From an uncultured Planctomycetia bacterium (GTDB taxonomy: Bacteria > Omnitrophota > Gorgyraeia > 2-01-FULL-45-10): 64,000 nt of DNA. Of this stretch, positions 4,717 through 62,300 are shown piece after piece. Every line of letters begins with the position of its first letter. Positions within the stretch are counted from its first letter, which is position 1. The translations under genes were made by a program, and so were the position numbers. Location: the NCBI GenBank assembly GCA_964352425.1, contig CAYGRZ010000004.1:2647-66646 (forward strand). The letters are read 5' to 3'. Below the pieces are notes generated by a model that was given only the letters and a program-made list of their open reading frames with translations, was not told where the DNA came from and made no database searches.

Positions 4717-5598
4717 TTAGCCCTTCATGCCGGTGAGCTTGATGCCTTCGACAAAGAACCTCTGGTTAAACAGGAATATGATGATGACCGGGACCATGGT
4801 GACGAGCGACCCCGCCATGAGGAGCCCCCAGTCGGGCTGCGCGTACTGGTACAGCTCCTGGAAGTACGCCAGGCCGACCGGCAGCGTCCTCTTCTCTATC
4901 GAATTCGTCACGAGGAGCGGCCACATGAAGCTGACCCAGTTGCCGAGCGATACAAAGATCGTCAGTGTCGCGAGCGCCGTCTTCGAAAGCGGCAGTATCA
5001 CCTTCGTAAAGATGCCGAACAGCGTGCACCCGTCTATCGTGGCGGCGTCCTCGAGGTCGCGCGGTATCGTCATGAAGAACTGCCGTAAGAGGAACGTCCC
5101 GTAGGCGGAGAATATCGCCGGTATGATCAGCGCCTTGTACGTATCGATCCAGCCGAACGTCCTCATCAGCGCGAATACGGGTATCATCGTCACAGAGCCG
5201 GGTATCATCATCGTCGCGAGATACGCGAAGAATATCTTGTCCCTGCCGGGGAACTTAAGCCGCGCGAACGCGTACGCCGCGAGCGCGCTCGTCGCGACCT
5301 GGCCGAACGTGACGCACGTAACGACGAAGAGGCTGTTCAGGTAGAACCGCGCGAACGGCACGACCTTCCAGACATCTATGTAGTTCTTCCAGTACATGCT
5401 CTTCGGTATCCACTGGATGTCGGCGAGGTTGAATATGAATACGGACGAATAAGACTTCAGCGACGTCGAGAGCATCCACAGGAACGGGATCACCATCGTG
5501 GCGCCGCCGACGATCAGGAAGAGGTAGACCGCCGCCTTCTTCAGGAATCCGGCGAGCGTCTTATCCATCCCTACCTGTATCAGGTCATCCTGCTGCAT
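4717..5598 (-). CDS. Carbohydrate ABC transporter permease (MalG-like).
   Basis: Six TM helices and the EAA-loop motif DLEDAATIDGCTLFGIFTKVILPL. Confidence 0.8.
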   Translation of the reverse strand: MQQDDLIQVGMDKTLAGFLKKAAVYLFLIVGGATMVIPFLWMLSTSLKSYSSVFIFNLADIQWIPKSMYWKNYIDVWKVVPFARFYLNSLFVVTCVTFGQVATSALAAYAFARLKFPGRDKIFFAYLATMMIPGSVTMIPVFALMRTFGWIDTYKALIIPAIFSAYGTFLLRQFFMTIPRDLEDAATIDGCTLFGIFTKVILPLSKTALATLTIFVSLGNWVSFMWPLLVTNSIEKRTLPVGLAYFQELYQYAQPDWGLLMAGSLVTMVPVIIIFLFNQRFFVEGIKLTGMKG

Positions 5599-5611
5599 CC
5601 GCCCCGCCCCC

Positions 5612-38300: not shown

Positions 38301-41300
38301 AGGCCCGCGGACACGACGACGATCTCCCTCTTCTCCTGCCTCGCCCTTTCCGCCACTTCGTCGATATCCTCGAGCCTGACCTCTTCGATATCGAGCTTGA
38401 GGCATATATTCTTCACGATCTCCTCGGCAAGCCGGCCCTCGTCGCTCCGCTTGCCTTGCGCATCCACAGGATAATTTGCTTCGAGCCATTGCCACAGGGC
38501 GAAATGCGCGGTATGGCGGGCCGTCTTTATCGTTTCGCTGACACCGCGGAACATGCGCTCGGCGACCTGGGCGGCGGTTGTAGAGGGCGACATCTCCGCC
38601 ATAGCCGCCGTGTGGCAGGCAAAATACTTGCCCTGTTCCGCCTCGACCCCGTCCTCGCTTATCACGTATCCTTCGTCAACGGCTTTTATGACGCGGATGA
38701 TCCTGCTCTTCGTGTCAGGCCTGGCGAACACAGGCACCTTCAGGAGCATTTCACAGGCTTTCCTTACCTGGGCCGCTGCGCTGTCACTGCCGTTCTCGAC
38801 CCTGACATTCTCCAGGATGTGGTCATACAGGGCGATCATCGCCTTGAACACTTCCGCCATCTCTCCCGTCGCCGTCTTGAGATCTTTCTCAACCCGGTAG
38901 ACCTGCGGACGTATCCTGCTTATCAGGTGCGTCATCTCGTCGGCGGGTGATGTCCTGATGTGTTTGACCCGGTCGCCGACCTTGTACCCCGACTTCAGGC
39001 CATCGAGCGTGAGGCTGTCTTCAACATAGTTCAATATGATGCCGTTCCATACGCCGCCGGGCACACCGTTCGTCGCGCACTTATGTATGCCGCGCAGTTT
39101 TTCGTAACAGAGCCCGTACGCCTTATCGGACAGGGCCTTGGCGCCTTCAAGATTAACGGCGTTGGCCCTGCCAAGCAGCTCGGCCGCCGTCTCGGCGGAA
39201 AGCTCTTCCGCTACCGCAGGCGATTTCTGGAGCTGGAGCAATTCGATATACACGCCGTCGTAGATAAGGTCGAGCGTCCTGGCCCTTTCTATCCCGCGGT
39301 CGCCGACCATTGTTACAAATTCCTTATCGGCGCCGATCCTGTTCGGCGTGGCGATCAGGACCTGCGTCACCGGCACGTCGTGGGACGTGACCCTCTTCAG
39401 GTCATTCAGCGCAACGTGGGTAGCCGTCTGGCCGGCTTCTTTCGTCTTGCGTGCCAGCAGATACAGCTGCCACAGCTCGAATATCTCGTTATACAACTTG
39501 CTCTTGTTCTTGGGATCGACGACGTGGTTTTCCGTGAACATCTCGGTCAGGCATTTCTGCACAAAATCGACAGGCATGGGCTCTAAGCCGCGCAGCTCAT
39601 CGGGCAGCGTCTCTTTGAATACTTCATAGACATCGCGCTCTTCCCTTGCCCTGTCAAGCATCGCCTTCTCAATGCCTTCGCGGCCTGTCGCTTCGCCGAC
39701 AACGTCTTCGCCGACGGCCCTTGAGATGTAAGGAGCTGTCGCGCCTTCGGGAGGAGCCCCGACGGCGCCTTCCTGTCCGGCGGTGACCATGCCGAGCATC
39801 ATGCCTGCCGCCGCTATATTCATGGAGCTGATCTCGTGCCCAAAGGCTATGGAGGCAAGCGTACCGATGCCGGCAAGGAGCATCATCTTCGTCGTAGCAC
39901 TGAGGCTCTTGGACCTCTTTGTGAACCTTTCCACCACGCGGCTAACCCTGTCTTTAAGAGGCGCCGCTGCTGTAACGGCCTCTGCCGGAATAAACGACTG
40001 TTCGTTGATATCCACACCGACATCGAGATCGTTATTAAGCTTTTCGAGCAGGAGGTTGACATTATTCTCGTACACATTGCAGGACGGGCATTTATGTATG
40101 TCGAAATCTTTTCTGGCGCGCGTCGTCCCTACCAATATGTCATGGAGCCGCTTGCCGCCCGTGCTCAGATCACCTATCTGGAAGATCCTGTCTTCGAATG
40201 TCGGCTGGGCAGTGAGACAGCACCTGTATACTTCGCCCCACGGGTTGATGACGATCTTGGTCAGGGTGGCCCAGCAATCCCTGGGCATCTTGACCGGCTT
40301 GGCCGATTTTACAAGGCCTCCGGCCAATACGTTGAAACGCTCGGCTATATCTATCCTCATATTCCCGAACTCCCCGAGCCTCTGCATCTTCCTTATCTTG
40401 AATATCATCTTGAGGAGCCCTTTCATCTCCTCCTCGCTGAAGTCTCCGATCTTTCCTATGATGTCGGCCCTTATATCGAAGAAGTCCGCTCCCATGAGGT
40501 GTGCGAGCTTGATGGCCATGTAAAGCTCTTTATAATTCTGGGACATCGCGAGGAAGCTCACGCCGATGCTGACGTCGCTCTTAGTCTTCCTCTTTATCTC
40601 CACCATACCTCTTATATTGCTCTTTATCCACTCGACATCCGAGCCGGGCCTGCGGTAGACCGCCTCATAGGTTTCCGGCGTGGCCGCGTTGAAGCTGACT
40701 CGGATCTGTTTTGCGTGAGTGACGACCTCCTGAGCCCTGGCGGTATCAAGGAACGTACCTTCGGTATATATGTAGACATTCAGCCCTTTCCCTGCGGCAT
40801 ACTGCACGACATCTACACTATCCTTATTTGTAAACGGCTCTCTGCCGCCGGAGAAATAGATGTCTCTCACGCCGTTTGCTGCAAAATCGTCTATCAGGGC
40901 GAAGAGCCTCTCCTTATCAATGGCGGGCTTGCCCTGCCTGTCGGCATAGTCCCGGCCCTGGCTATAGCAGAAGATGCAATTGCTCGGACACTTCAGGCCA
41001 AGATGCAGCTCCACGATCTTCGGATATACCGGCTCACCATTAAGGATCTTCCTGACGTAATCCTCATCCTCCATGAGCAGCCGCGCTATCTTGATAAAGG
41101 TGGCGTTCGGCGACTCCATGGCGAGCATCTCCTGCATGAACTGGCTCGACTTCACTATCTTATACAGCTCCTTCAGGTCGCCTATATCGAGCCCTGTCTT
41201 TTTCATCACCTCATGGGAGGAGCTATACGGATAGAGCAACAACTCCCGCAATAGCCGCAGGAGCGGGATCCTCAGCCTGTCTCTCACCTCTATCCCATCC

Positions 41301-44300
41301 GCCTTCAATGCCTCCATGGCAAGTTCAAGTGCCTTATTATCCTGCGTTATGTCGACACGGGCATCCTTCAGCCGGCGTGCGAGGTTGCCGACAGGCTCAT
41401 ATAGCGAATGTATGTAGTCTTCGAGGTAAGTGGATGACCTGCTGATGCCGTAATCCCGGGCATACTGCAGCACCTTGTGGAATTTGAAATCATCCAGGTC
41501 ATCGCTGTTTTTGAGAGCACTGAGTATATTGTCCTGTGTCTTTTGCGGGAATGCGAGGAACAGCTCTACTTCTTTGGAGGTGATATACATCTCTTCTTCC
41601 ATGGGAGAAAGAGGCGGCGCGTTCGTCGGCATGCTGCGGAGCCTGGCGTGCATGAGCTCATGGATAAATTCCATGAATAAGAGCTCGTTATTCGCCGCCA
41701 ATGAGTCGACATCGAGCGTTATACTATCAGCACCTTCCGTGAAATGCATGAGGCGGTCGTTCCCCTCGACGATCCGGATAGATTTTTCTTTCATGAGCGC
41801 CTTTCTCTTTATGGCTGCGGCATCTCCGCTTCCCATTTCCAGGAGCTCCTCTACCTTTTCCCTGGCGGATTCGCTTAAATCATGGAGCGTGATAACTCTC
41901 TGCAGCAATGCTTCCAGAGCCGCCTTCATGCCGTTATCTATACCTTTGTAATTCTCGACCTGTCCATCGATGATGGTGGCCCAGGCCAGGTCGTGCCTGC
42001 CGCCGAGGACACCTGCCTTCATCGCTATGGGCGACGGCGCGAGTGCAGCGGGGGCCGCCGGAGCCGCAGCCGGCGCAGGAAGATCTAACAATCGCTCTAA
42101 GCCTGTCGCGCCGCTCTTTGTTACGACCGCCTGCCTTTTCGCGATATCCAAGTCGGGCCAGTATTTTTCAAAAAACCGCCGCGGGCCGGCAGCTTCCAGG
42201 ACCTCCATTATTCTGTTGATACGCTCCAGTTTTACGGCATCGACCTGTCCGGCCAGAAGGCCGCCCTTCTGCCGTTTAACTATTTCATTCAGTACCCGCA
42301 CCCTGGCGAATTCATTCAGCTGATCCCATGCGCCCTTCCATTCCGTCTCGGTCCACGCCTTTATTTTCTTATGCTGCAGTTCTATTTCGGAGAGATCCAT
42401 CATCTTCATCGCATCAGCGACCTCGTTGCGCAGATCCTGCTTATCGGTACCGGCCAGGTCCAGTTCTGTGAGATAAAGTATATAGAGCCTTAACGCGTGC
42501 CTGTCCTTATTGTATATCGTCTCATTTTTTGTAAGCTCTTTTATCTTTTGTATGGCCGCGCCGTCCGACAGCGCCGCTTTCCCCATCACCGTACCCGTCT
42601 CTTTCATCCAGGCGTTCAGTTCGTGTATCATGAACTGGAAAGGCTGGGTCCTGTGCTCCCTGGTCCCGCCGTACTTCGCCGTATACCAGGCGGCATATGG
42701 CCCGAATACCCATGACAGGATAAATATCGGGAAGCCCTTGAAGACAAAAGCCGGGTCAAATATTCTGAAAAGGAAATAGTCGCTCGGGAAGAATACCCCC
42801 ACAAGGACAAGGACAAGCAGCGTGATCCCGGCTATCGGCGCCCATTTAAACTCTTTATACGCCTGCCAGACAGTCATTCCCTTTTCCAGTCTGGCCTCGA
42901 CTGCTGTAAGCGTATCCCACCTGAATTCTCTTCCTTGTATGACAGCCTTTGTAGATTTTTTAAGATCGAGAGGGCCGTATATCAGGTTCATCATCATGAT
43001 CGAGGTATGCAGGAAGGTCTCGACAGCTAGGCGCTTTGTCGTCAGATAGACCTTATTCACCATGCCAAAAAAGTCTTTGACAAATAAGGCCGGTCCTGAT
43101 GCGGCGCGTGCCATGGCGTGTTGTAACATACCCGCAAGCGTCGCGATCCCGACGTAGATTATAGTATATGCACAGATACCGAAGTTGTGCTTAAGCAGGT
43201 CTTCCGTAAGGTAAGCCGCTGACGGCACACTCCTTAAACATAGCTCGATATACGGCGTGGCGGCCCAGAACATGGCCACCAATCCGGCGGGCATACCGAT
43301 CTTAACCGGTATCTCCGTCCACTTCATGCCGACGCTAATAAGTTTCTTGACCGGATTCCGCAAGATCACGATGAGCAATACTACGACTGCCGCCCAGACC
43401 GCCAATGCCGGTGCCGCTATTATTATCTTCGGCAAGGCGACCAATAACGCCACGGACGCGAGACCGCCCGCTACGTTTGCCCAGGTCTTCAGGCTCCGGG
43501 GGCCTCTTTCGAACGTCTCTCGCAGTATAGGACTGCCTTTCTGGCCTATCAGTATGAGCATCACGATCGCGAAGAGGTCGCGTGCTGTGACCGGATGAGT
43601 TCCGGTAAGGACAGCGGGAATCTGTGTAGCAATCAATCCTAAGACGACGAGCCATATTGTAAAGACCGGAGTGGACAGCATCCCCCGTATTATGCCTGAA
43701 ATGTGGTGTTCCGATTCAAGGTTCACGTTTGCGCTTCCCAGTACCGATTCTCGTATCTGTTTTTTCGCGGCGATCATAGCCTCTATGCCATGGCCCTGAG
43801 CATACGCGAACATGGCTTTTGCCGCGTTCCATTCCCTGCGCAGCGCCTCGACATCGCCCGGCACCCACCGCCTCATCCTTATGATCATTGAGGAGAAACT
43901 GGTCACCGTCTCTTCGAGTATATATATCGGCGCTAAGAGCGTCCCTACAAGATATGCGGTCGCCGTCCACATCGCCTCCCAGAAATCATGGCTTCTGACC
44001 GTCCAGGGAAGGACCTGCTTCTTGATAACATCGTTCAGATACTTTGGACCGTAAAACGTCATCTTGCCGACTGCCGAGCCCTTGCCGAAGATCCAGAAAA
44101 AGACAAGGGAGATATAACTGAGCATGCTCTGCGCCCAGCTCTGCAGCCGTGCGAACAGGGACTTACCGATATTGGGGTATTGTATCTGCGGCTGGTACAT
44201 CCCCCAAAGCTCCTTGCCCAATATGTCATACGCGGCCCTGCTGCCTATCCGCTTGGCCACTCCCGAGATGACCTCATTCTTATTATCTATCTCTATCGGT

Positions 44301-47300
44301 AACTGTATATATATATCCGGTTCCACCTCATTACCCAGCATATCTTTGGCATACACGTATCCGGCGTCTCTCTTCACTAAAATATAGGTCCCGACCCGCG
44401 CTATCCTGTTCTTGCCGTTATCTATCGCCCACCCCTCTTCATCGATATCAAAACCGTCTTTTTGCTGTAAGGTCCTCTCGACAATGAGATCGCCCGTCTT
44501 CTCATCGACCGCGACCTCTCCGGCGCCGAATGTCCCGTTCATATTTATGACAGGATCGCCGGCGTCAACGGCTATCCTGCGTAAATTATTATCTTCATCT
44601 AAAACGAATTCGCCGCTGGCTGCCAGCTCCCCGTCCGTAGTCTTCAGATGAGCATTCCCGTAGCCGTCAAAATAGACATCGTCATATTGCGCGAGGAGCC
44701 TTCGCGTCCTGTAGATGCCGTTGTTGTCCTTGGCGAATGTTCCGTATCTGGCAAGCCGCTGCGATTGTTTCAGGGCCTCCGTCTTCTGGTCCAGTATAAT
44801 GTTATCCTGCACAACGCTCGTGATGCCATCCTTAGCGAGATCCCACCTTCTCAGGGGTTCCTTATCATACCGTGACACGCTGCCATCCATGGGATACTGT
44901 AGAAGTTCTCCGCCTTTTATTACAAACCCGTCTTTTTCATTTGCAAGATAGCCGTCCTCGACCTCTCTCAACCTCAATGCGCTCGTGTCTGCTATTAACA
45001 TTCCGCCTGCGTCCCTGGTGAGCGAATGAGCGCGATCGGCTATAAAGTAAGTGGTCTCCCTGCCGGTCTTGCCGAGCCCAAGCTCAAAGAAGTCGGTTAT
45101 GGCGCCCTCGCGCGCGTATAACTTTGCCTCTTGCTTGGTTATCCCTCCTGCGTACAGGTCGCCTTTCAGGTCTTTCTTCCATGTCCCGTATTTTGCGAGT
45201 ATACGGCCGCTTGCAGTATGTATGGCATCTCCTGTGGCCTTCTCTACGTGCCATGAGCCGGCCAGGGCTTTCAACCCCTCGTCCACGATCAGGTTGCCAT
45301 CCGCATCCGCAGACCACCACCCGACGGGAACGAGGACATCGCCCGTAATTGTAACGGCGTTGCCTGTTTCAGGATCACGCTTCCATTCGCCTTCTTTTGC
45401 CCTTGTCTTTACAAAGGCTCCGCCCCTCTCTGTAATGACGCCGTTGGCGTCCAGCGTATCTATGAATGTCTCCAAGTTCTCCGGAATGATCGGCCTCTGC
45501 CCGTCGAACTCGGCCGCGCGGGTCAGGAGATATTCGCCGCCATATTCGTTTACAGCGGGGGTAATCTTGCCGTCCGCGCCTAATATATATTTCTTATATG
45601 CTACACCTTGATCGATATGCCCTATCTCATCTATCGACGCGAAATATGCCCCTGTCGCGGCATCCAACAGCTTGCCGTCTTTCGTCAATATCAGCGTATG
45701 CCGTATCGCGCCGCTTTTATCCTTCAGATAGATATGCTGGTCATATATAGTGGCGACCCTGTCCGGCAGCTCCTGGCCGTCCTTTCCCTTGGCCCTCTGC
45801 GTACTGTCATTCCTGTCCCTGAGCAGGCCTGACTTGGGAAGCTCGTCATACATATCCTTTGTCGCGATAAGTTTTCCCGTCGCGTCATCATAGATGTCCC
45901 CCTTAAGGAGCCTGTAACGGCGGGCCGGATTATCCGCGTCAATATAGTATACCTCTGACTCGGCGCTGACCTGCCACTCACGGTCATCTATCTTGATCGT
46001 GCGCCTTTCTATAGCATACTCGCCCTTAAGTAGCTCCACCGCAAAGTCTGTTACCAGCTCAAACCCTTCATTCTCTTCATCATATACGGGACTGCGCGTG
46101 TATGTGCCGCGCGGGAACCTCTTCACTTCGGTAGTCTTGCTGGTGTCGCTGTATACGATCGCCTCTCCGGTCACGCCGTCTATGGTATATGTTCCCGGCT
46201 CTGCCAGGATACCCTGCCTGAGAGTGCCGGAGGCGTCTTCCGCTACTGTGATCTTAGGCCTGTCATCATCCAGTCTTGTGACATAGAGATGCGGGTGGGT
46301 CCAGCACTCCAACATCCACTCAAAATCCGACCTGTAAGAGCCGGGCTTCATCATATGCGTCGGATTATACACGTGTTTCTGGAAATTTCTGTGCGCATAG
46401 GTAACCTTGTCGCGGCCCCACAGCCTTCTCGCATTTAATATCTGGGCTATCTCTTCCATTATAAGCCCGGCTTCCTTCAGCGCCGTATCGCTGTGCATCC
46501 ATGCGCCGAGATTATCCTGCTCATCAGGAACAAATTTATTGCCGGCTGAATCCTCATAGAGATATTTCGCCTTGTCCGCGCCGACCCTCTCCATCTTCAC
46601 GCTGTTTATCATGGAATCAAACAATGTTTTCGCGATAAGTTTTACGTCAAGCGGCCCTTCCTGGCGGCCGATGTCATAGATGACGGCCTTATATTTTTTG
46701 GCTATCCTCTGCGTCTTTTCGACAAGTTTATATTTTGGCAGGTCCCACGGCGCTCTTTCCTTAAATAGGCCTACCATGTTGCCTAGGAATAATGCGCCAT
46801 TTGCCACTGTAAGGGTACCGATGGCGACAAATAGCTCTGCCATGCAGTAATTGCAATAGGTATACAGGACCGCTGCCACGGCTATAATGCCGAGCAGGGA
46901 CGTGTCCGCGTTTATGGTGCTTAATGCGTAAATAGCCGTAACTGAGGTGGCGGCCGTGGTTATCGCCAGTTTCGCCAGGCGCGCGAAGAAGGTGTGGGTC
47001 AGCTCTCTCTGATTGCCTCTTCCTGTAATGGCTGTGGCCGCCAATTTCAAGGTATCCCGTCCGAAATCGACCGCGGCGGATATAGTGATATATACCAGGA
47101 TGCCGGACGCAAGCGCCATTAATGTATAATTTAATCCCGGGATCCCCGATATATAAATACACGAGAAGACCGCCAGGGGGACCGCCCACTTTATGACAGG
47201 CCGTATAGGAGGCTTTGTCGCTTTATCGATAAAATAATTCCACCACACCAATACTGGCGCGAGCAGTATGAAGAGCCAGCTTGAATATGTACCCAGCACC

Positions 47301-50300
47301 GTAAAGTGGGTTATGTCATTAAAGTGGTAGAGCGTAAGCCCGGTAAGCACCAATTTTGAGATAAATACCATAGCGCGGAAAAGCCCCATCAACGCTTCGA
47401 TCGTTACGGCTCCTGCCTGGCCGGAGGTGTCTTTCGGGGCCGCGGCAGGCTTCGCGCCGGCTACCGGCGGCGTGGGCGCCGCGGGAGCTGTACCAGGCGC
47501 CGGTACGTTGGCGTTGGGTCCGTATAATATCTTCTTATTTTTACGGATCTCTCTGCGGTGGCGGTAGAGGGCTATCTTGTAGAATCCCATAATGCTAAGG
47601 ATAGAGATAAGCATATAGGTAAGGCCGGCTATAAGCTTGTGCTTCGGTTCCGGCGCTATTTTCCCCAATTCCATTTCAATGATGCTCCGGATGACTTTCT
47701 GCAGCCGCGCATCCTGATCTGCGGAAAAAGCGCGAACAGCGCGGGGCCGAATTATCGCCGTGTCGCCCTTTCCTTCTTTGACATAGTCTATCTTTACAAG
47801 GCCCCGGCTTATGATCCTGTCTTTGATCCGCGCTGTCATCTTCTCTCTGTCCCTACGCGACATCCCTTCGATCTTCTCCTGAGCTTCAAGAGATAGCTTT
47901 ACGTCAGACAGCGGGTCTTTGCCTTTGAATACGTTATCGTCCAGATAATTCTTTAACGTCTCATGCAGTGACAGGAGGCGATCATTCTGAAAATCGTTCC
48001 AGGTGACATCCATGGGCGCCTTGACATCCTGTATCAATAATTTCTCCCGAGGAGAACCGGTTTTTATGCCCAGGGCCTTGAGCTCCATGATGCCTATGAC
48101 CTTATCCTTATCAAACCCGTCTTTATCGAGCACGGCCAATATCTCAAGATCCCCCCTTTCGATACGTATCTTTTCGAGCCTTCCGAGCATCGTCGGGTCC
48201 TTGATACTCTGGCTGATCGCGGCATTGGCTTCCTTCACCTCTATGAGCCTGTTAACAAGCTTCACGAAATTTGCGGGGTGTATATTCCTTGCTTTAAGTT
48301 TCTGCGAGATCTCTCGTATGATGCTATCGCGGTCCTTTTCGAATTTCCCGAGCTCGATCCTGCCATCCTCGAACTGGGAAGCCACGATCTTCTGTATCTT
48401 GTCCGCCTCTATGTCAACTATCTCTGCTTCCGGCGGTTCGATGATATTTGTGTTGAGAGAAAGGCCGATGATATAGAAAAGATCTTCCCGGGTCTTTTTA
48501 TCCAGCGTGTACTTTTCGCTCGCCAGCTTATCCGTCATCTCCTTAACCATTTTTATGGTCCTGCTCACGGGCAGGTCCATGCCCTGAAGATCTTCCACCG
48601 TAAGCGTATCGGCCCTCCTGCCGAAAACCTCGTAGTAGTCGGTTCCCGGCGCTTTCATCGGCACCGGCATGATGCCGTTATATATCATGTGGCTGACGAG
48701 TATTTCCAGGGCGTCCTCATTAAGCGTTACGCCCAGTTTTTCCATCTCCCCTTTCAGGTATATGCCGTAGAGCAATTGCACCCTGATATAGTCGATCGGC
48801 CATCCGTCCATATCTATTTGCGTGACGTAATACTTTAACTTTTTCTCCATGGGAGGCGTCAGTTTGCTCTTACTGTAAATATTCTTTAACAGCTCCCGCA
48901 CCTCGAGCGGATGGACAAACGTCTTGGTCAGGTAGTCGCTGGCTGTCATGCCGCTTAAATATATCTGCCTCTGGATATCCCATATACTGTTTTCATCCGC
49001 GGGATCTATCCTCTTCTCAGGCGGCAGTTGCTCGTTAATGCCGGGCAGCACCGCTTCAATATCTTCCCTTATGGCAGCCAGATCCTGATCCTTGAGCGCC
49101 TTGTCGGCTGTCCGCGTCTTGTAAGCGGAAATTTTTCCCTGCCGCTCATCCTTAACCGGTTCGCGGAGATCGATCCACTTATCGATCTGCTGTTTGTTGG
49201 CTATGGTCCATTCTTTATTTCTTTCGCTCAGTTTAAGGTTGATGTTCCTGATGATATCCGGGAATATCATCGAGTCCAGGGACTTGACATCACCGGCTAT
49301 CTTTTCCCCGGGTACATCCTGTGTCTTCAGCAGCATATAGGTTATCTGCTTATGAAAACTGCCCAATTTTTCAATGGCCTCGGCCCTGGCTTTTCTCATA
49401 TAGCCGGGCCTGGTCTCCGTGATGGCCTTCAGTTGCTCCATATGCTCATTGTAACGCTGGATATCTATATCGCTGAACTGATCCTGGTCGTTAAAGAGGT
49501 CATTCCTCTCCTCTTCGATCGACGGGCCGAGGTTCGTGTAATATTGTCTCTGGGACTGGAACTCTATATTGATCCTCCTCTGCATCTTATCTCTCTGGGT
49601 CATCACGCCGGTCTCGCTTTGAGCCATCTCCCGTATAGTGTTTCTCAGCATCTTCTGCCCGAGATAATAACCAAGCGGTGAATTATTGGCCCATTCCTGG
49701 ATAAGCGAGGCATCATAGAAGTCGCGCCGGATCCTTGCCGTTTCCCGCTCCTCGCCTTTTCCTGCCTCATCCAGCTCCATGAACGTGCCGGTTATCTGGC
49801 CGTAACTTAAACGGGGAACGCCGTTGGGGTCTGTCTGGTTCTTGACCATCGCCTCTTCTTCTCTCTTTATGAGGGCTTCAAACCGTATATATTTTGCTAT
49901 CTTATTCCTGATGAACCAGTCCCCGGTCTCCTTGCGCTCCGGCTGGCTCAGGTTCTTGAACCGCGGTTGTGAAAGATATTTCTCCTTTGCATCCTGCAGA
50001 TAATTCCCGAACCTGATGGCCGCCTGCAGGAATCCCAGCTCGCCTATCTCTATCTCCTGGCCGCTCGCCCTGGATATCGCTTTGAGATAAACGGCATTCA
50101 CCAGCTCTCCCTTCGCCTCCGCCATCTTTTCCTTCATCAGATCAGCCGGCTCCTTCCCCTGCTTGGCGGCAAGAGCCTGCATCTTCTTATACATTATCTG
50201 CGCTCCGGAGGTCGCCAGAGTATCCTTGACTTTTTCCCGGTACGTGTCCAGGCTATAGAACAACCGTGCGTTATACACCGCCTTGACAAGGCCTTCCCAT

Positions 50301-53300
50301 TCTTCTCTCTGGGTGGACACCGGGCTAAAGATATTTTTTATCCGCTGCCGCATCCTCGGGAAGAACCATTCTTTAGCGAACGGAGAGGCCGCTTTTTCCG
50401 CGAGCCTTAATTTTTCTCCGAGGGCCTTCTCCCGATCGGCTACCGCATCCCGCAGCCGCTCTCTGAGCTTGAGTTCTTCTTTCCTGGCATTAGCCGCCTT
50501 CTTCCTAACCTCATCGAACTTTTTTAACAGGCTGTCGGCCTTTATAAACGAGCTCTCGAGCGGTTCCTCCTTCGCGAACTCCTCTATGTCTGCATCGTTG
50601 TCCCGCAAGTCGGCCGCGAGCTCCTCAAGCTCCCGGATCAGATTGAATTCCGCCATCCCCCGCATCTTCGGGTCACTGCGATATGCGTCCGTCAATTCCT
50701 TGATGTCCGATAATATCTGGCGTAACTTTGCGGGCTTTTCTTTGGTGAATCTCTCCTGCTGGTACACGTCGTTCGCTTTCGCCACTTTTTCTATGCTGCC
50801 GCGCAGGGCCTCCCATGCGATGAATTTCGGATCTTTTACGGACTTCCGCAATTTCTGTATCTTGCCGTCCAGGACACCCGCCTTCTCCAAAGCGATGAAT
50901 AGATCATTAAAAGTTTTTTTGTCATCCATGCCCTCGACCTGCTTGAGGCGCTTCTTTATGCTGTCTACGGCCGCTATATATCCGTTTTGTTCAAAATATA
51001 TCAATGTATACACGTTGGTGATATCGCGGATCGCCTTTCCAACGGTGCCGGTATAATTCCCGGTGACCGCCAGCATCTGCTTGACGTTATCCTGCCATAT
51101 GCTGAGATCTGCGGGGTCCGCCATCCTCCCTGTCAGAATCTTATATTTTTCGTCATCCGGCAGGTCTTTCTCGGCGGGGCTTACATATATGAAATTCAGC
51201 AGCACCTGAGCCCAGTTTGCCACTTCTTCGCCGTTGAGCGGCCTCCAATGATGTTTCGCAAGCGCGTCAACGATAAATTCGGCGGAGAGCCTCTTCTCAA
51301 TCGTAGCGGCGTCCGTTACGCCTTCGTCGTAGAAGTTGTCTACCCGTGAATTTATTACGCCCTGGCGGTGGACCAGATAGAAATCCTTCCTGAACGCCTC
51401 CATGTAGCTGCTCACCGTCCGGGGATCAAGGGCCACGCCATATCTATCCGCCTTCTTCTCCAGCTCCTTGATCTTCTTGTCGACCTCATGGTCCCTCACC
51501 ATCTCAAAATCGGTTCCCTTCCTGGAGATGGCAACGACCCTTTTATCGGCGAGGTCCGACACAAGCTCCCGCAGGTTCAGTTTAACCGCTATATCTTTCA
51601 GGGGGACGGGCTTTCGAATGCCGGACAGTCTCCTGTAATTATCATCGACTATGAACGGATCGGCTACGGACGAAAGATATCCGTCCCTGTAGATATCGGC
51701 AAATTCTTCCTCCGCGCGGTCCCGTATCAGCTTCTTCTCCTCTTCGGGGAGTGCCGCGCCGAATGCCGCTTCTTTCTGCTTGATCTTTATTGCGACGAAC
51801 AGTTCCTTCTCGGCCTGATTTGCCGCTATCGGTTTGTCCAGTATTAACCTGTTCACCTCGTTGCGGTACGCGATGATATCGTCCATCAACGTCGTATCGC
51901 TTTCTTCTATGACCTCTTTCCCCAGCAGCTCTACAAAATCCCGTGCCATGGCCATATGCTTCCCGAACATCACGGCATCGCTGTACCCGGCGAGGTTCTT
52001 GAAATTCTTTGCCGCGGGGTAGGCCTTTGTAAAAAGGAGCCTTATATTATCTTTCTGCTCATCGGCCGGAGCGAGCCCGTCGCTATTTAAGAACCGGCCG
52101 ACCCACGTGTTCTTATTGATAAGCACATCTATGGTTATGGCGAGCCTGAGACCTTCTCTCTCCTCCTCGCTCCCTGTTATGAGGTGTATATAGGGCTCTA
52201 TTGTTTTGGATACGTTTGCCAGTATGGTTAAAACACGTTCCACCTGAGATGCCGAGAGGTCTCTGTCGCTGGCGAACTGCGTCCACCACATCGTCTTGCC
52301 CATCAGGATGGTGTCGGTCACCTTGGCCAATTCCTGCCTGTACGCAGGGGTCTCGCGCTTGCCCATGAGCTTCAATACCATGAGGCGCGCGCCCTCCGGC
52401 ATCTTAAGCACCGCCTCTTCGTTCAGGTTATAAAAGCCTTTGATGAACGGCGCGATCGCGTTCATGAGTTCCACGTTTTTCGCCAACTGGGCGCCGGTCC
52501 AGTCATTCCGTATGGGCAGAGCCGCAACGGCTCCCAATACTCCGGAGTCGAGGGCATCCCCCTGTTCATATACGGCTCTTCCGTGGATCAGCTGGGCTAT
52601 GTCGCGCGACCGGTTGGCGGCGTCTATCCTTTCATCGGTCGATAATTTTGCCCATTCAGCACGGTCGAGGCGCCTGGTCACGGCGTCCTCCCACGCCAGA
52701 TACTGCCGGCTCGGCTCCAGTTTATTTGCCAGGTCAGCATCGAACCGGTTATACAGGCCGATGTTCTCAAGATCCTCCCTGGCCTCTTTTGCCATGATCC
52801 TGTCCCTGGCCTGCGCTCTGGTCATGCCAGGGTTCTCGGCCATAAGGAAAGCGACCCTGCGCGCGTAATAGGCCGGCAGCCCTATCTTCGCGTAGCTCAG
52901 GTCGTCTTCCCAGCTTAACGGCTTCAGGTGGTCTTCGAAGAAGCTGGGCAGTTTGGGGATCTTTGCCATCTCACCCTTCAGAACATCCGAAAAATACGCC
53001 AGATCTTCAACGAACTCCCCGAAATCTTTGTCGGCGGGATTCAACTTATGCGCGATACCATACCTGTACAGCATATTGGCGACGCTGACCGCCTGCTTTT
53101 CCTTTATGCCCAGGGCGCCCATTATCTTCGAAACCTCGTCGCTGTTAACGGCCTTCCGGGCCTCCGCGGAAACGGCATTTTCGATCTTTTTCCTGTACAG
53201 GTTGTTTTCGCCCTTTTCGAGAGCCTTGGCCAGGTTCATATCGGGTGCTATGCGCGATTTTATCCTGGCGGCATCTCCATCTAATTCCTTCATCCTGCCC

Positions 53301-56300
53301 TTGAGGATATCCACCTTCTGCCGTGCAATGGCAAGCTCGGCGGAGACGGCCGCAAGTCTTTCGGCGTCCGCGGCCGGCGCCGGCTTTTCGGCGACCTCTG
53401 CCGGCATCCCGGCAGCCGGCAGCGCTTCGGCCTCTTTCTTTTTCTCAAACGCCTCGCTGTCTTCCTTGGTGATGAGGTTATTGAACAGCATCTCTATCCG
53501 CATATCGATCGCGCTGATCTTCGCGATGGTATCCGCAAGGGTCATCTCGTCACGCCGCAGCCACTCTTCCTGCTCTTTAAGCTGCGTTATCCCGATCTTC
53601 CCCTCAAGATACGCCTTCCTCATGTGCGCAACGATCTTCGGCCTGTCATGATACGCTTTTTGCGCCGCCTCGAGCTCCTTCAGCGCGCCGGTCCGCTCTT
53701 TCATAAGATCGTCTAGTTGCTTCCTGAGGTCCTTTAAGGCCTGCGCTATGTCGCGCTTGAGCTGGTTGGCGGTCTCTTTAGCCTTTGCTCCTCCGCCGAA
53801 CCAGCTGAACAGCCGGAACTTGTTGAGCTTAATATTCAGATTGATGCTCCACGCCAGGTCAACCTTGTTGACGAACTTTTTGGCCGCCTGATCGTACGAT
53901 TTGTCAAATCTCGAGGCGCTCAGAGAGAGCCATATGTTCTCCCATCTTCCCATCGCCGCCTCTATCAGGGCCGCCTTCTGCCGGTTTTCCAGCTCCCTGA
54001 TATGCGGGTTATTTTTAACGATATCCGCCCATATCGCATCAAGGTCCACGGGCAGCTTCATTTCCGGTTCTTTAGTAAGGGCCGCGAGCAGTTGGTTAAC
54101 ATCTGCGGGCTTCCCTTCCTTTTCGTCCTTGCCGGCTGCGGTTATCGACGTTATGTCTCCGACCTCCTTCAGGTCGTACAGTATGCTAAGCTGCAACAAA
54201 CGGATCCTGCTCTCGGCCGCGCGCTTTATCTCTTTGGTTTTATCGATGAGCGCCTTATATTCGTCAAGGCGGGTATCGTTCAGGACGGGGTTGTGGGCAT
54301 TATACTCCTCGATCTTGCGGAGCTGGGACTCCTGCTCATTCAGCATGACCAGCAGCGATGCGACCTTCCCGCGCTCGCCGGCCAGCTGCGCGTATAATTG
54401 CTCTATCTCCATCCTCTTGTTGAATTCGACGCCTTTTCTGCTCCATACGTCCGCTTCTTTATCAAGATTTGCCTTTCTCAGGCCCCTGAAGAAGATATCA
54501 GGCTCGCTGACCGCCTTGAAGCCGTATCGCTCGGCATCCTCTGCCCGGTAATTTATCTTCCAGAGCGTCGCAGCCTCCTTTTTTTCTATCTCCTTATTCA
54601 CGTTATCTGCTCCGCCGTACTTCTCGTAGGCGGGACCAACATCTATATTGAACGTCCTCCACCACGCGCTTTGCACGTCGATATTCGCTTTATCGACCGC
54701 CGCCTGCGCAGCCGCAACCTCTTCGGATCTCTGTATCGCATCTTCCTTGACCGCCTTCCCGTCAAGCGCCGTAATCGCGTCCTTTTTGGCAAGGGCCGCT
54801 TCTACATACTTCCTGAATTTGATTATCTCTTTGGATTCGCCGTCTCTCGGCGCCGTCTGTTGTTCAAGAGCCTTGATCCTGTCGCCCGACCGCTCAAGGG
54901 CCGCCGTCACCTCCTGAAGGACGAGTTCCGCCTCTACGACCCTCTTCGAGGCATCGGCGAGTTCCGCCCGTTTCCCCGTTATGGCGGCCGGCGTCGAAAC
55001 CGTCGAGGCCTCCAGGTCGGCCAGCCCTTTTGCTATTTTGTTTTTGTGCTCTTTCGCGGCATCAAGGCCGGCCGTAGCGCTTATTACCTCGTCCCGGTCG
55101 GCCCTGTATCCATTGATCCAGCCGATAACCACCCGTTCGGCCCCGCCGATTGCCATTTGCTGGTCCTTCTTCGTCCTGGCGACATCCGGCTTGAACTTGC
55201 CTACTGTCACATTATGGAAGAACGGTATGAGGCTCGTGAACGCGCCAAAGCTCCACGTATCCTCAAGGATGTTATATTCGCCCGTCAGTGATATGTCATA
55301 CGGCTCGCCGGTCCTCGCTGCCGCCACCGCATATTCCCATGCCTCCAGGTAGCGCAGAAGCGCCATTATCGCGGCCGCGTCCGCCTCGGCCTTGTCATAC
55401 TTGCCGGCGGCCTTCAGGTCGCTGATCTCTTTGGCGATGCTTTGCAGGCTTTCGATCTCTACGGCAAGGTCCGCCCCCTCGGCCTGGAGCCTCAAGAGCT
55501 CATCCTCAGAGCTCTTTATCTGCCTGTTAACCACGTTTACTTCATCGGGGGCCACGCCTGCATACACCCCTTCTTTTTGCTGGTACTCCAGCGAGCTCTC
55601 GAGCTGTTTTTTTAATTCCTGCTCGAGCTCTATCCTGTCTCTTAACGCGGCTATCCTTTTTGTGTTCGCTTCAAGCGCCGCCCCGGCAGCCTCCTCCCTG
55701 TGCATAAGCTCATTCTTCGCGGCGACCAGCTCCCGTTCTTTCATCAGCAGGAAGGCAACCCTCTGCATGACCATGGGCTTCTTTTTGCTCGGCAATCCCT
55801 CTATCCGTATATCGAGGCCCGCGCCTATAGGCTTCGATTCCCAATCGTACACGAAATTGAGGACTTTACGGTCTTTCGGCGGAATAGCGCGCGTTTCCGG
55901 CGTAAGACGCCCTTCCGCTTCGGCCATGAACTGCTCCCGCGCATCTTTAACAGACTGCGGCAGGGGCCCTTCCTTCTGACTGGTCAAGGTTACGCTGTAT
56001 CGCATCGCGTCTTTTGCCTTAGTGCCGTAAGGAGCTGCTGAAACCGACATGCCCGGCACCATTACCGTCTTCCAGATCTTGTATTTATTATTGATCTCGT
56101 CGATGTGCGCCTGCTGTATCGCACCTGCCACCGTGATCCGCTCCAGCGCCCTTCTGTTCTGCTCGGCCCTGGCCCTGGCATCCTGGCCCTCCTTCAGCCT
56201 CTCCATATCCTGCTCGAGGGTATCGGCCGCCTGTTTCAGCCTGTCAGCATATTCTCTGGTGTTCTGGAATAAAAGCCACGTCTTCTCGGCGCCTATCTTT

Positions 56301-59300
56301 TCGCTTAAAGCGCGCAGATATGCGACCACTTCCCTGCTCATCGTGTCTATGCGTTTATCGACGATCGCGTCTATGGTTTCATCATTCAGCGCGCCTGCCG
56401 GTATAGCCGCCCTGTCAAAACCCATCTCCTCCAGCGCGCTCAGGATGTTTTCGATTGTCGCTGCGATGCGCGCGGCATCTCCCCTGCTCGAGACGGCTAT
56501 CATTTCTGCCTTCACATAATCGACCTGAGAGATGATTCCTTTGTCCGCTCTCTCCTTAGCTATCTTGGCGGAGGCGGCGGCATCGGCCTCGATCCCCTGT
56601 AAAACTTCAAGCCTGGCACGGCTTAGCGACAGCAATTTCATGAGGCGCACGCTATTCACATATCTCGCCCCCAGCTCCTCCATCAGGTCCGTCCTGGAAA
56701 GAGCCGTGTTCAGCTTCTGTATCTCTGCCGTTGAGGTGGTCGGGAATTTTATAGTAAGGCCCACCCCGAGCGGCGTCGTTGTCGTAACGGAGTATGCCTT
56801 TTCCGTGGCTGTCGCGTCAACGTCTCTGGTTGTCGTGCTGAATTTTGCGTGTAATGCCAGCCTGAAATTGCTGTTCTTATCGGCAAATATCTCATTCAAT
56901 ATGCTGCTCTGTATCCCGAATGCCTTAAGCAGCGCCCTGGCATCCCCGCCGCTTTCTTTTCCCCTTGACCGCACGGCCTTTTCTTTCAGGGCAAGAAGTT
57001 CGCTTTGCAGGGCCTGGTTCACAGCCGTCATATCGTCCGTGTCTATCGCTACGGCGTCCGCGCCGTCGTAATCACCCAGGTCCCGTATCATGGCGAGAGA
57101 CCGCTCCCGCGCTTGCCTGGCGACCTCGTAGAGCCGCTTGGCGTCTTCTTTTCTGGCCGTCAGGTCCTGTATGGGCCACGCTTTGGAAGGCCGGGCTCTC
57201 GCCTGTTTATATGCCTCCCCGAGCGCCCGGAGATTCTTCTCGTAGGCATCTTTTGCCAGCGCTTCGGCGGTCCCGGCCGCCTTGTAAATATCCATCGCCT
57301 TCCTGATGTTTAACAGGAGATCGTAACAGTAGAGATACTCTTCGAGCTCTCCGCCTTCCATGTTCTGTCTGGCGATGACCCGGCTTATATCTCTCGTGGC
57401 ATCCCATACGACCCAATCGAGCTGGGCTCCGTACGATACGAAATTCCCCGTCGCTGACGAACCTATGCCGGCGCTCAGCGTAAGCTCCGGAGCATACTGC
57501 GCCCACTTGCTCTGCTTCTTCGCCAGTATCCGCTGTATCCTTGTATTCGACCTCGTGGCCTCCGCCCGTGCCGATTCCATACCATGCCTGTACACATCTC
57601 CGAGCGTGACTTTTTTCTGAGCCTCGACAGCGCCCGTCGTAAGAAGCCCGAGCTCGCTGTTCACGGATTCTATTTCGGAATCTACGGACCTTTGCAGCTC
57701 TTTCTGCTCTCCTTCAAGGCGCAGGCTCTCGGCTTCCTTCCTCTTCAGTTCCTCTGCGGCTCTGGTACGCTTCGCGTTAAGCTCATTTTCAGAGGCCTTG
57801 ATCATGAACGCAAACTCTTTTTCGGCGGCCTCTTTGGCTGCGGCGCGCGCGGCGGCGAGATCGGGTTTCTGTCTGACTATGCCCCGTATGCCGGCCTTGA
57901 CGCGGTCGAGCATCGAGGGCGCCGGCGCGGGGATGGTTGTAGCCGGCAGTTGCACCGAAGGCTTCGGCATTGAAAGCGCGGGTGCCGTCGGTACCGGCGC
58001 TGTCGGTACCGGCGCCGGCGCTGCCTTCTCAGGCAGTATATTCTCGGGCTTTACCCCGGCAAAATCGAACTTCTGAGCGCCATAGATCTCGGCCAGGAGG
58101 CTGTATTTACCGACCGATTTTAAATACTTTTCGACATATTCCGAGTTCTTCGATCCTGCGAGCCCCAATACGAGCATTCCCTGGTCAAACGCGAGTATGG
58201 TCCTGCCCTTTGTCCCTTCTTTCGTTATGACATCGACCCATCCTTGCGGCGTCATTACACTGGGATACGCCGCCTTCAGGCTGTTGATAAGGCTGGATCC
58301 GACCCGCGGGATCACAAGGCCTGTAAGCGCGGAAGCATGAGGCGATCCTGCGCTGGTAAAGACATCCTTAGTATTATTGAATACTGCTACCGTCTCGGCT
58401 ATCGCGGGAACGCCGAATACCGGATATGTGCCGCGCTTGAGCCCGCTTGCCGTAGACAGGAGGGCCGGCAATCCCCTGACGTTAAGCGCATAATCGATGT
58501 GAATTGCAATAGTGTTGAGGTTGGCCTTCGCATAGCCTTCGGGCGATAAGGCGCTTTCGTTGATCCAGGCGTTCGGCAGCAAGGCCTGGAAGACCGTCCC
58601 GTCCCACGTATAGACGGCGTATATCTCCTCGCCCTCCCGCGTAATGTATGGAGTCTTGGTTACCGGTAATTCCATGTTAGTGAACGCCTTGACCGGTACC
58701 TGGCCGTCGCTGAACAGGATCGCCCACAGGGGTGCTATCCTGCTCTCATTGTACCTTCTGTCCAGGTGATATTCGGTTTTCAGTTTATAGCCGGCCCGCA
58801 GCAATCCGCTGCCTATTGTGGTCTTTTTGTTTCCATCATACAATGCCGCCCAACCCTTCTTCTGCGCATCTATGATCTTTTGTGCGGCCGCGGCTATATC
58901 TTTATTCTTCCCGTCATCCTGGAATCTTCCTATCAAAGCGGCCAGGGACCAGCAGAGGTTCCCGTTATCTACCGCGGACACGCCGCGCGCCTCATCCTTG
59001 ACCGCTGTGCCGTGTTTAAACTGGTACCACCAGAACAAGCCGCTGATATTTTGGCTCTTATCCGCCTGCAGTTCCTGCAGGGACCCTAAGGCTTTTCTTA
59101 TTCTGGTGAGGGCCTCGGCAGGCGTAACGCCTTCCATCTCGGCGTCGCCCGAGGCGACCAGCATCATGCAGTTCAGGTATACACCCGCATCCGTCGGGTT
59201 AAAATATTTCCCGGTACTGTCAATGGACTTCCTGCTGCTGTCCAGCAGGATGTGGTTGTACGGCAGGCCCGTAGAACTGTCTATGTTGTCCTTAAAATAC

Positions 59301-62300
59301 CTCAGGTTCTCTTTTATTGCTGCTTTTCTGCCGTTCTCTTCTATCTGTGCCGTATCAAGCGTCTTCACTTCGCTGGGAAGCTGCTCGCGCGAAGGGATCG
59401 CTGCCGCAGGCGGGGCGACTCCGGTGTGCGGCGCGGCCTCCGGCTTAGTGATCGCAACCTGCGGCGCTTGCGGCACAACGAGTTCGCTCTTCTCGAGAGC
59501 GTCAAATATGATACGTACATTTTTCCTCAGCCGCTTGAATCCGTCAAGCTCCTGAGGAGAATACTTCGATATCACTTTAAGCATGGCGGCCTGGGCTTCA
59601 TTCAGCTTTTCGCCGCGCGCCTGCGCAACCAGCGCTTCCGCTCTAAGCCTGTACTCTTCCTGCGGATACACGAGCGTCGGCGTAATGCCTGCGGATATTG
59701 CCACTGCCATGCCGAGCATCCGCGATAAGGATTGCGTAAACTCCCTTCCTGTGCGTTTTTCGATATTCATGTTATACGCGTAGATCACGCACGCCGCGAT
59801 GACCGTGACCGTAGCCGCGATCAGGTAGATGCCCAGGGCTGTGAGCGTAGCGCCCATGGCGCCGAAGAGGAAGTACGCCGAACCGCCGATCGTGAAGGCG
59901 TACATTATCACACTTCTCGAATTCGGTATAAAAGACATGAAGAACTGCCTCCAGAATCCCTGTCCCAGCTTCTCCGTCTCGCGGCCTATGCGCACGGCCA
60001 GCAGCGTCTGCATGGTGAGCATCGCTATGCCTATGATCGCTATCGGAAGCCCTATCATCCCTCCCATTATGGCGGTGGGAGTAACGACCGACAGGAGTCC
60101 GACAAGCCCGATACCTGCGGCCAGGCCCAGCACGCCTCCGGCCAGGACCGGCCATTTTGCCCTGTCGGCCTCGGCCTTCTGGGACATCGTGCTGGCACCC
60201 AGCATCACGGCCATGGACGCGCCTGCCGCGCCTTTAGCCGCGATCGAGGCGGCGATCTCGTCCGCCCCGAACTGAACCAGGAACATCACTACAACTGAAA
60301 CGGTAAGCGCCATTATAAAAGCATTGACGGCCCTGCCGAACCTGCCGGGGGCTATATCCTTTGCCTTTGACTCGAAATCTTTATTATAAATCATCGCGAG
60401 CATGATACTGGATATCAAAGCAAACAGGCTCGACCCGAATGCCAGGACGATGATGGGTATGCCGCCCAGGGCGATGCCGGGATGCGCGACCGCGATAGCG
60501 AGCGCGCCTATCGATGCCGGGATCCCCATCTGCGCCAGTACCTGCGCGACCATCATGCCGATCCATTTTATGGCGGCCACCGTGCCGCCCGTGAAGCCGC
60601 CCTTGCCTCTGCCCTGTACATATGCCATGAAGTGGTCGCTGGTCCTGTCGAGGGCCGATATCTTCAGTCCGGTCGCAAGGCGAAGCACCAGGGCCGGTAT
60701 CAGCATAGCACCTATGGAAAGGCCCGCGCCCATAAGATCGCTGTTCAACGTCGCAGTAAAAGGCGTAATAAGAGAATCTGTCAAAGGCCGTACGCCGTAA
60801 TAAGAGAATATGATGCCGACCCCCAGAATGAAAGTTATCATGGCTATCGACTTTATAAAGTTCGCCAGGAATGGGCTCAGGAAACCGGGCCTCGGAACAT
60901 CTTTGACATCCGCGACACTGCCCTTTAGAGCACCCGCCATATTATCGGCCGCGCCACGCCACAGACCATCTAAAATCGCCCTGAATTCTACCGCCACGGC
61001 ATCAAACTCCGTAAACTCTGTCGGCGGCTGGGCGAGCTGTATGCCGCGGGCGAGCTTCTGGGACAAATACCCCATCCGCTTTCTTATCTTCTGCTGACCT
61101 GTCTGGAATTTGGCGACCGCGCGTACCGCCTTCTCATTCGTGACCTGCCTGGCCGTTTCAAGCTCCACCGGATTCAGGCCGGCTTTTACCTTCTCGTATA
61201 CCGATTCCCCCTTCTCGTCTTTTCCTAACGATGCCTCAACAAGCCACTTGAATTTTTCCGGTGTGCTGGTGCCGTCTATGATATGCGCGATCCGTTTCTG
61301 TAAGTCGAAGATCTCTTTCTCTTTTTCGCGGCGCCTCTCGTCGTTCCTGTTCTCGGCGCTCACTATCATGTCCCACGCCGTGCCAACAAGCCCGCTTAAA
61401 TACGCTTTGTCCTCTGCAGAGCCTGTCGCCCTCGCTTTTCGGGCCGCATCCGCAAGCTCGTCGTATACCGACTTCAGCGTCTCTTTATTCTCCTTAAAGA
61501 CCGACTCGTCGAACGAGAAGAGGCACTCGTAGGTGCCTTCGTTTATTCCTCTGTCCGCACGCAATTTAGTCTGCGTCGCGAGGGCCCGGTATTTGTCGAG
61601 GTCAAGTGACAGGACAGCAAGCCCGGGGGCAAGCTTTCCTACTGGCGGCACCTCTACGGGGACCTGCTTACCGTCGGCAGCCGTTTCGGTCCGCTCGACA
61701 GGGTTGCCCTCAGGATCCAATACGGCTTTGCCGTCAGCGCCTTTTTCAAGATACCGTCCTTTTATACCTATATTTATAGCGCGGTGGAGTACGTTAGTGG
61801 CGATCGTGATCACATTGGCATACCCGCCCATGGCCACCGCCCTGCGCAGCTCTTCCGGATTTTCTCCGCTCGCCATGTTTATGATTATTCCGCGGGCCTC
61901 CAGCTCATTGTGCAGATTTTTCTCTATATAGTCCCTGAAGTCTTTGGCTTCCTCATCATCCCCCAGCTTTATGAGGATCGGCCGATTGTTCGCAAGCCTG
62001 TCACGAAGCTTTGCGAGAGACGCCGACCACTTCTCATCCCGCGTAGCGAAGCCCTCGTGGCCGAGATCCTTAAGCGTTATCTTCACGCCCTCGACGCGCC
62101 GCACCTCTCTTCCGAATATAGCCTTAAAGCGCGAGCCCTCCAGGGTACCGCTGGTGGCCGCAAAACCATCCGTCATCTCATTCTGGGTAAGGTACTGCAC
62201 TATGTTCTGGGCCGCCAGCGTCTCTGTCTCAGGCGAGATCTTCTCCGCTTTCAGCGCTATTTCGATAGCCTGCTGGAGCCCTTCGCCGAAATTCATCCCG

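Follow-up and report, generated by a model that had tools for sequence, protein, structure and literature searches.

Outer membrane factors (OMFs) such as TolC, OprM, CusC, and CmeC carry two repeats per ~450-aa chain, have a signal peptide (often with a lipobox), and form homotrimers with 12 strands and 12 helices; all OMF structures solved so far are trimers built from two-repeat protomers (PMC8277102). A second group of described proteins, the 'Archaeovorin-type' giants of Omnitrophota (10.1101/2023.11.21.568195; 10.64898/2026.06.07.730766), combines a divergent SecA-like domain with many transmembrane helices, has phosphoglucomutase/phosphomannomutase, radical-SAM, and phosphoenolpyruvate (PEP)-utilizing domains in or beside the giant, and is followed downstream by sugar importers with solute-binding proteins and by glycoside hydrolases. 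Both papers on these giants leave open how the extracellular parts pass the outer membrane, and neither mentions TolC or OEP domains. Here, we analyzed a 64,000-nucleotide stretch of contig CAYGRZ010000004.1 (hereafter, the window), whose (−) strand encodes a 9,517-aa protein of this second kind, and found that aa 2096–3482 of the giant (1,387 aa; window 53465–57625, [−]) is a predicted array of six tandem, collinear TolC/OEP-type repeats, the complement of three two-repeat TolC protomers. We found no report in the literature of a natural single-chain or fused TolC, or of TolC in Omnitrophota giants.

The array was divided according to the OMF repeat grammar (PMC8277102, section 6.2), and the order is the same throughout: a short helix, a hairpin rich in Gly, Ser, Thr, and aromatic residues, a 54- to 70-aa helix, and a 32- to 47-aa return helix (Table 1). 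This order resembles that of TolC, OprM, CusC, and CmeC, in which a half helix is followed by two strands, a long helix of ~60 aa, and then a return half helix that terminates in L-x-x-x-G. Further likenesses to OMFs are a G-x-[IV]-[ST]-x-x-[DE] tip in units 2 and 6 (the canonical G-I-I-S-x-x-D at aa 2458–2464 in unit 2; G-I-T-Q-L, together with a KNNP motif, in unit 6) and the number of repeats, six being one channel's worth. Unit 3 departs furthest from the pattern, with a helical N-terminal extension of ~100 aa and a long inter-strand loop. The spacers between units, measured from the end of a return helix to the next helix, are short (~5 to 20 aa) and thus keep all six units adjacent. A first-pass annotation of this DNA had placed at least three or four OEP-like repeats in series at window 53411–57763 (aa 2050–3500), behind a Pro-rich linker and each opening with an NNP-type motif. 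The OEP architecture and the serial arrangement were borne out, but the number of units is six, the NNP motif occurs only once (aa 3300, in unit 6; the peptide quoted as an example, AIWADIVKNNPHIRELENRQKA, begins at aa 3292), and the linker, although real, lies just outside that span.

Unlike known OMFs, the giant holds six repeats rather than two in one chain, has no signal peptide, and carries its module between inner-membrane helix clusters of a 9,517-aa protein, in which it begins at aa 2096 and not behind the N-terminal signal peptide or lipobox of a stand-alone precursor of ~450 to 500 aa. Nor was a cognate transporter with an HlyD/membrane fusion protein adaptor, as in tripartite and type I systems, seen among the larger ORFs alongside it in the window.

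Table 1. Positions of the predicted OEP units and associated features in the giant protein and in the window. Consensus, the hidden Markov model consensus of each unit's small alignment; P0001, the homolog UCD55527.1; P0002 and P0003, further homologs.
Feature	Giant aa	Window position	Strand	Evidence	OEP in homologs (bits)	OEP in consensus (bits)
Giant open reading frame (ORF), 9,517 aa, contains the OEP array		35357..63910	(−)	ORF list; translation without internal stop		
Divergent SecA-like ATPase module	364–807	61490..62821	(−)	Pfam		
Transmembrane-helix cluster 1 (8 clear + 3 possible helices)	1011–1416	59663..60880	(−)	Kyte-Doolittle, positive-inside		
Pro-rich linker ahead of array (20% Pro)	~1955–2000	57911..58048	(−)	Composition		
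Putative OEP unit 1	2096–2283	57062..57625	(−)	OEP in P0001 and consensus; helices; strand pattern	P0001 32.3	26.9
Putative OEP unit 2	2284–2500	56411..57061	(−)	OEP in window, P0003, and consensus; strand pattern; tip	P0003 9.2 (same register as the window's unit 2 match)	26.4
Putative unit 3, most divergent	2501–2835	55406..56410	(−)	OEP in trimmed consensus; helix pair; strand pattern		17.4 (loop-trimmed)
Putative OEP unit 4	2836–3030	54821..55405	(−)	OEP in P0001, P0002, and consensus; invariant columns; helices	P0001 33.3; P0002 26.2	21.6
Putative OEP unit 5	3031–3262	54125..54820	(−)	OEP in P0001, P0002, and consensus; helices 3149–3206 and 3213–3250	P0001 22.4; P0002 18.8	28.3
Putative OEP unit 6, most canonical	3263–3482	53465..54124	(−)	OEP in window and consensus; strand pattern 3350–3362	P0001 19.1	41.8
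Ala/Pro-rich linker behind array	3490–3520	53351..53443	(−)	Composition		
Transmembrane-helix cluster 2, closing the ~4,000-aa hydrophilic loop with the array	5426–5711	46778..47635	(−)	Kyte-Doolittle, positive-inside		

The units were recognized with the Pfam OEP profile (PF02321; 187 positions, gathering score of 22 bits). Of the window's own six units, only unit 6 rose above the Pfam threshold: aa 3290–3475 aligned to profile positions 1–185 of 187, scoring 20.9 bits within a 4,800-aa piece and 27.3 bits (E = 3.8e-6) within a 261-aa piece. Unit 2 of the window gave a partial match of 13.9 bits. The gathering score was reached by units 1, 4, and 5 in homologs and by units 1, 2, 5, and 6 in the family consensus, with OEP as the top family for each of the five consensus units other than unit 3 (Table 1). 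Altogether, five of the six units had OEP as their best Pfam family, with E-values from 1e-4 to 1e-10. For unit 3, the match came from the loop-trimmed consensus and was weak (E = 0.004, profile positions 40–145). The alignments were not confined to helices: they span the β-hairpin (profile positions ~40 to 85) in units 1, 4, 5, and 6 and, in unit 2, the part from strand 2 on. In a control scan, ten pieces of flanking sequence with a similar composition (aa 1377–2100 and 3480–5430) gave no OEP match at E ≤ 1, and the OEP signal is therefore specific rather than a coiled-coil artifact. The first-pass annotation had named generic coiled-coil matches alone as an outcome that would undo its proposal; with OEP as the top family for five units and negative flanks, this is not what the searches returned. 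From these profile matches we conclude that five units are OEP repeats and that the remaining one, unit 3, is a putative, strongly diverged OEP repeat in the expected position. That the six units constitute a genuine OEP-repeat array we regard as highly probable.

An exhaustive HMMER search over 1.84 billion representatives recovered three relatives of the array, UCD55527.1 (1,647 aa), MFH1593843.1 (835 aa), and NIM02774.1 (353 aa), of which the first two come from Omnitrophota metagenome-assembled genomes. UCD55527.1 is named 'MAG: TolC family protein, partial' at NCBI (Candidatus Omnitrophota bin17, CP070780.1) and matched the giant with an E-value of 1.9e-51 in phmmer over aa 2281–3480 (units 2 to 6) and of 1e-81 in tblastn over aa 1958–3627. 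All six units are collinear between the window and UCD55527.1 at ~27% identity, and the collinear homolog alignment over the six units gives 24 to 27% identity (23.5 to 31.4% per unit). Like the giant, UCD55527.1 has a linker ahead of the array, here a Lys/Pro/Ala-rich repeat at the position of the giant's Pro-rich linker, and a homologous region behind it. Judging by the alignment, the count of six repeats is conserved in this relative, although its annotation does not record a six-repeat nature. In CP070780.1 (L001, 1–24941), the homologous giant gene is interrupted by four 100-N gaps, and its scaffold pieces stand in the wrong order, as can be seen from the last 46 residues of the piece ending at the third gap, which recur in the piece that follows the first gap; the broken gene and the misordered pieces account for the annotation as a partial TolC family protein. 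Other homolog searches with the array region and its small alignment returned nothing, and scanning genomic and metagenomic DNA with the window region and a small alignment brought up no relatives beyond the locus of UCD55527.1 itself. The exact sequence of the giant is absent from a collection of 15 billion proteins, in which seven of its neighbors are present (from an NCBI contig, Logan runs ERR3804373/4, or both). Because ORFs of such length seem to be lacking in protein databases, the three homologs are a lower bound, and the absence of the giant shows that these databases largely miss modules of this kind.

Next, we considered the predicted structure of the units. AlphaFold2 was run separately on units 1–3 and units 4–6, with alignments of three to four sequences, and returned a regular secondary structure, i.e., a 28- to 69-aa helix, a non-helical low-confidence segment, a 54- to 70-aa helix, and a 32- to 47-aa return helix. 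The order and lengths of the helices fit the OMF repeat in all six units, and the long helix pairs have a predicted local distance difference test (pLDDT) score of 70 to 91. The non-helical segments are poor in charge and rich in Gly, Ser, Thr, and aromatic residues, in contrast to the rest of the region, which is 32% charged. Strands were sought with a strict alternating-pattern scan, a hydrophobic-moment scan having proved too noisy, and alternating hydrophobic/polar strands were found inside the predicted hairpins of five units (1, 2, 3, 4, and 6, in the window or in UCD55527.1). Examples are VDLAWSINLNIKL, IGAGLDIRI, and LGVGLTIKF, which show the pattern expected for lipid-exposed strands; in UCD55527.1, six of seven alternating runs fall within predicted hairpins. 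Specifically, unit 1 has predicted strands near aa 2141–2150 and 2160–2170, an alternating pattern at aa 2158–2168, and helices at aa 2103–2139, 2186–2239, and 2247–2278. Unit 2 has predicted strands near aa 2347–2359 and 2379–2390 with alternating patterns at aa 2349–2357 and 2381–2389, unit 3 has an alternating pattern at aa 2695–2703 ahead of a helix pair at aa 2711–2780 and 2788–2834, and the helices of unit 4 (aa 2910–2968 and 2974–3018) have a pLDDT of 75 to 91. In a Foldseek search with the model of units 1–3, the top seven PDB matches were all OMFs (CmeC, TOprJ1, OprM, and TolC; probability of 0.85 to 0.97, E = 0.02 to 0.08), as were 25 of the 38 top matches, yet with E-values of 0.02 to 0.4 and TM scores of ~0.2 these are not decisive; the model of units 4–6 gave only non-significant matches (E ≥ 0.23). 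Overall, the structural matches were either non-significant or generic.

The remainder of the giant places the array in a membrane protein with a mosaic of domains. Across the whole chain, Pfam detected a SecA-like ATPase, one OEP match (aa 3290–3475), radical SAM and SPASM domains (aa ~7640 to 7945), and a PEP-utilizing domain (aa ~8686 to 8950). The SecA-like module upstream of the array, which the first-pass annotation had also seen, consists of P-loop_SecA at aa 615–807 (27.8 bits; gathering score, 27) and SecA_DEAD at aa 364–589 (22 bits, under the gathering score of 24.6). With several thousand residues, a divergent SecA DEAD/P-loop, many transmembrane helices, and an Omnitrophota genome, the protein belongs with the Omnitrophota SecA-domain giants, among which it is, at 9.5 kaa, a small member. 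Membrane topology was derived from a Kyte-Doolittle scan and our own positive-inside scoring. In addition to clusters 1 and 2 (Table 1), helix clusters occur at aa 6749–7041 and 9042–9067. Cluster 1 is ambiguous, an 11-helix model that leaves the following loop outside scoring 21. For cluster 2, an outside-to-inside orientation is favored (+16 versus −16), with ten Lys/Arg in the 59-residue loop behind its first helix. Because of the scores of the combined best model of clusters 1 and 2, the stretch of aa ~1417 to 5425, including the array, is placed outside the cytoplasm, and we infer a periplasmic location for this loop. Enzymes of cytoplasmic type lie in the C-terminal third of the giant (window 37061–40993, [−]; aa ~7640 to 8950), where the radical SAM CxxxCxxC is at aa 7641/7645/7648 and the PEP-utilizing domain scores 77.7 bits, and the chain must therefore pass the inner membrane several times. 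A run of 3,388 consecutive residues (aa 2196–5583; window 47162–57325) contains no cysteine, with cysteines on both sides; this stretch is compatible with an extracytoplasmic location.

The lineage of the host suggests a diderm cell envelope. HtpX encoded in the window is 74 to 80% identical to proteins of which all named ones come from Candidatus Omnitrophota/Omnitrophica, and the locus of the relative (CP070780.1) carries ddl, murC-murB, murG, and lptF/lptG (LptF/LptG, 246.6 bits). LptF/G is a marker of an outer membrane of the lipopolysaccharide (LPS) type. In addition, gspD secretin genes have been reported beside Omnitrophota giant genes. The HtpX lineage, lptF/lptG, and the reported secretins together point to an LPS-type outer membrane. 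Since the lineage is Omnitrophota and the locus of the relative encodes LptF/LptG, a monoderm host, which the first-pass annotation had raised as grounds for abandoning an outer membrane channel, does not appear to come into play.

The mechanism that would account most economically for these observations starts with the giant anchored in the inner membrane by the helix clusters that flank the ~4,000-aa cysteine-free hydrophilic loop (aa ~1417 to 5425), which would be moved to the periplasm, plausibly aided by the chain's own SecA-like ATPase. The six units, set off by Pro-rich linkers, would then build a single pseudo-sixfold channel-tunnel by folding in cis, such that the outer membrane would hold twelve β-strands and the periplasm twelve long helices. 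Such a module would link the giant's inner-membrane portion to the outer membrane, besides providing an exit duct for the giant's own parts or for other cargo. Within this scheme, we infer the cis folding into one closed barrel, the insertion into the outer membrane, and the transport; the mechanism as a whole, from inner-membrane anchoring to exit duct, strikes us as evenly balanced between right and wrong.

Several results weigh against a complete channel of this kind. In native sequences, unit 3 gave no OEP match and never reached the Pfam threshold. The PDB sequences of OMFs did not match the array in phmmer or profile searches, NCBIfam OMF subfamily models gave nothing above 16 bits (outer_NodT, unit 4 of UCD55527.1), and the units were not detectably similar to one another (phmmer with unit 6 against the whole giant; hhalign with unit profiles, all versus all), so far as profiles can tell being recognizable only via the broad Pfam OEP profile. 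The AlphaFold2 models were poor (mean pLDDT of 57.4 and 52.8), and the hairpins, with a pLDDT of <50, were not built as sheet. All three relatives are, unlike the giant, fragments cut short at 100-N scaffold gaps or at the end of a contig. A hydrophobicity scan found no signal peptide at the N-terminus of the giant, where the first hydrophobic segment begins only at aa 1011, and for cluster 1, a 10-helix model that leaves the loop in the cytoplasm scores 22 versus 21. Pfam scans of the larger neighboring ORFs and the rest of the giant detected no HlyD, RND, MFS, or ABC-exporter domains, and the only transport domains seen were BPD_transp_1 importer permeases and the SecA-like ATPase. Finally, to our knowledge there is little precedent for an α-helical inner-membrane anchor and an outer-membrane β-barrel in one chain. 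VirB10/TraF of type IV secretion, in which one inner-membrane-anchored polypeptide is also part of the outer-membrane pore, is a precedent for touching both membranes; the outer-membrane part of VirB10, however, is an α-helical antenna from 14 copies, unlike a single-chain β-barrel, and has no sequence relationship to the giant.

Instead of closing one barrel in cis, the units might work in pairs (1-2, 3-4, and 5-6) as two-repeat protomers, such that three giants would form three canonical trimers or trimers of mixed pairs. The arithmetic (six = 3 × 2) and the trimers of two-repeat protomers seen in all solved OMFs (PMC8277102) favor such an assembly, and the longest inter-unit segments precede unit 3 (the ~100-aa helical extension) and unit 6 (20 to 39 aa). 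Yet the spacers show no pairwise periodicity, those from unit 2 to 3 (~14 aa) and from unit 4 to 5 (~8 aa) being as short as the intra-pair ones, and neither OEP coverage nor tip motifs alternate between odd and even units. Three 1-MDa polytopic chains would also have to co-assemble, and we consider this arrangement unlikely.

The array could also be an OEP-derived scaffold that has kept its helical hairpins while the strands degenerated, and that would act, in the periplasm or the cytoplasm, as a stiff stalk or spacer rather than as a channel. The state of the hairpins speaks against degenerate strands: they are among the best conserved parts of the array (the unit 4 strand motif GEPYDISLTGE is invariant in three sequences), they retain the strict alternating pattern of lipid-exposed strands, and they are included in the OEP alignments. 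The orientation of cluster 2 further favors a location outside the cytoplasm, and a mere stalk likewise seems to us unlikely.

If the giant were a polyprotein cut at its Pro-rich linkers, the module would be released as a free, single-chain OMF of ~150 kDa that serves pumps or type I systems encoded elsewhere. Flexible Pro-rich linkers do lie on both sides of the module, and West-Roberts et al. raise the possibility that Omnitrophota giants are processed into smaller polypeptides (10.1101/2023.11.21.568195). Pfam, however, detected no peptidase domain in the giant, there is no cleavage-site evidence, and the window contains no gene for a partner pump or adaptor, which makes release of the module quite improbable in our view. 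A chance resemblance, in which a generic Lys/Glu-rich coiled coil scores on the OEP profile, can practically be dismissed, given nine independent OEP matches (E = 1e-4 to 1e-10) that share a consistent register and include the strand region, ten compositionally similar flanks without OEP, and the call of the homolog as TolC family by the NCBI pipeline.

The genes around the giant resemble those described for its relatives. Directly downstream lies a second long ORF (2,656 aa; window 27147–35117, [−]), with phosphoglucomutase/phosphomannomutase domains I and II at aa 1773–2053 and no annotation in the remainder. Further downstream of the giant (window 2682–26453, [−]) is a β-glucan utilization set, which comprises a 2,080-aa GH94 protein (8696–14938), three PF10091 'glucoamylase' proteins (glucanase-like), CBM11/CBM30 domains, a solute-binding protein with two BPD_transp_1 permeases, a ROK kinase, and an OmpR-type two-component system; these genes match the neighborhood reported for Omnitrophota giant genes. 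Within the giant, a segment of globular appearance that lies behind helix cluster 1 and ahead of the Pro-rich linker (window 58484–58762; aa ~1717 to 1809) gave a weak PF10091 glucoamylase-like match (14.8 bits, E = 0.021) and might represent a diverged glycoside-hydrolase domain akin to those of the neighboring genes.

We tentatively propose that a single chain provides a complete pseudo-sixfold TolC-type conduit, covalently joined on both sides to inner-membrane bundles and to a SecA-like motor, and that this explains export by the giants; we think this possible, while leaning against it. If true, the array would be a natural fused counterpart of the TolC trimer, whose characterized members are trimers of two-repeat subunits. 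It would bear on the assembly of a 12-strand barrel by the β-barrel assembly machinery (BAM), with no need for a step of subunit association, and would be a rare case of α-helical inner-membrane anchors and an outer-membrane β-barrel in one polypeptide. For the Omnitrophota giants, such a one-chain trans-envelope conduit, with its exit duct built in beside the SecA-like motor, would account for how their extracellular parts are exported.

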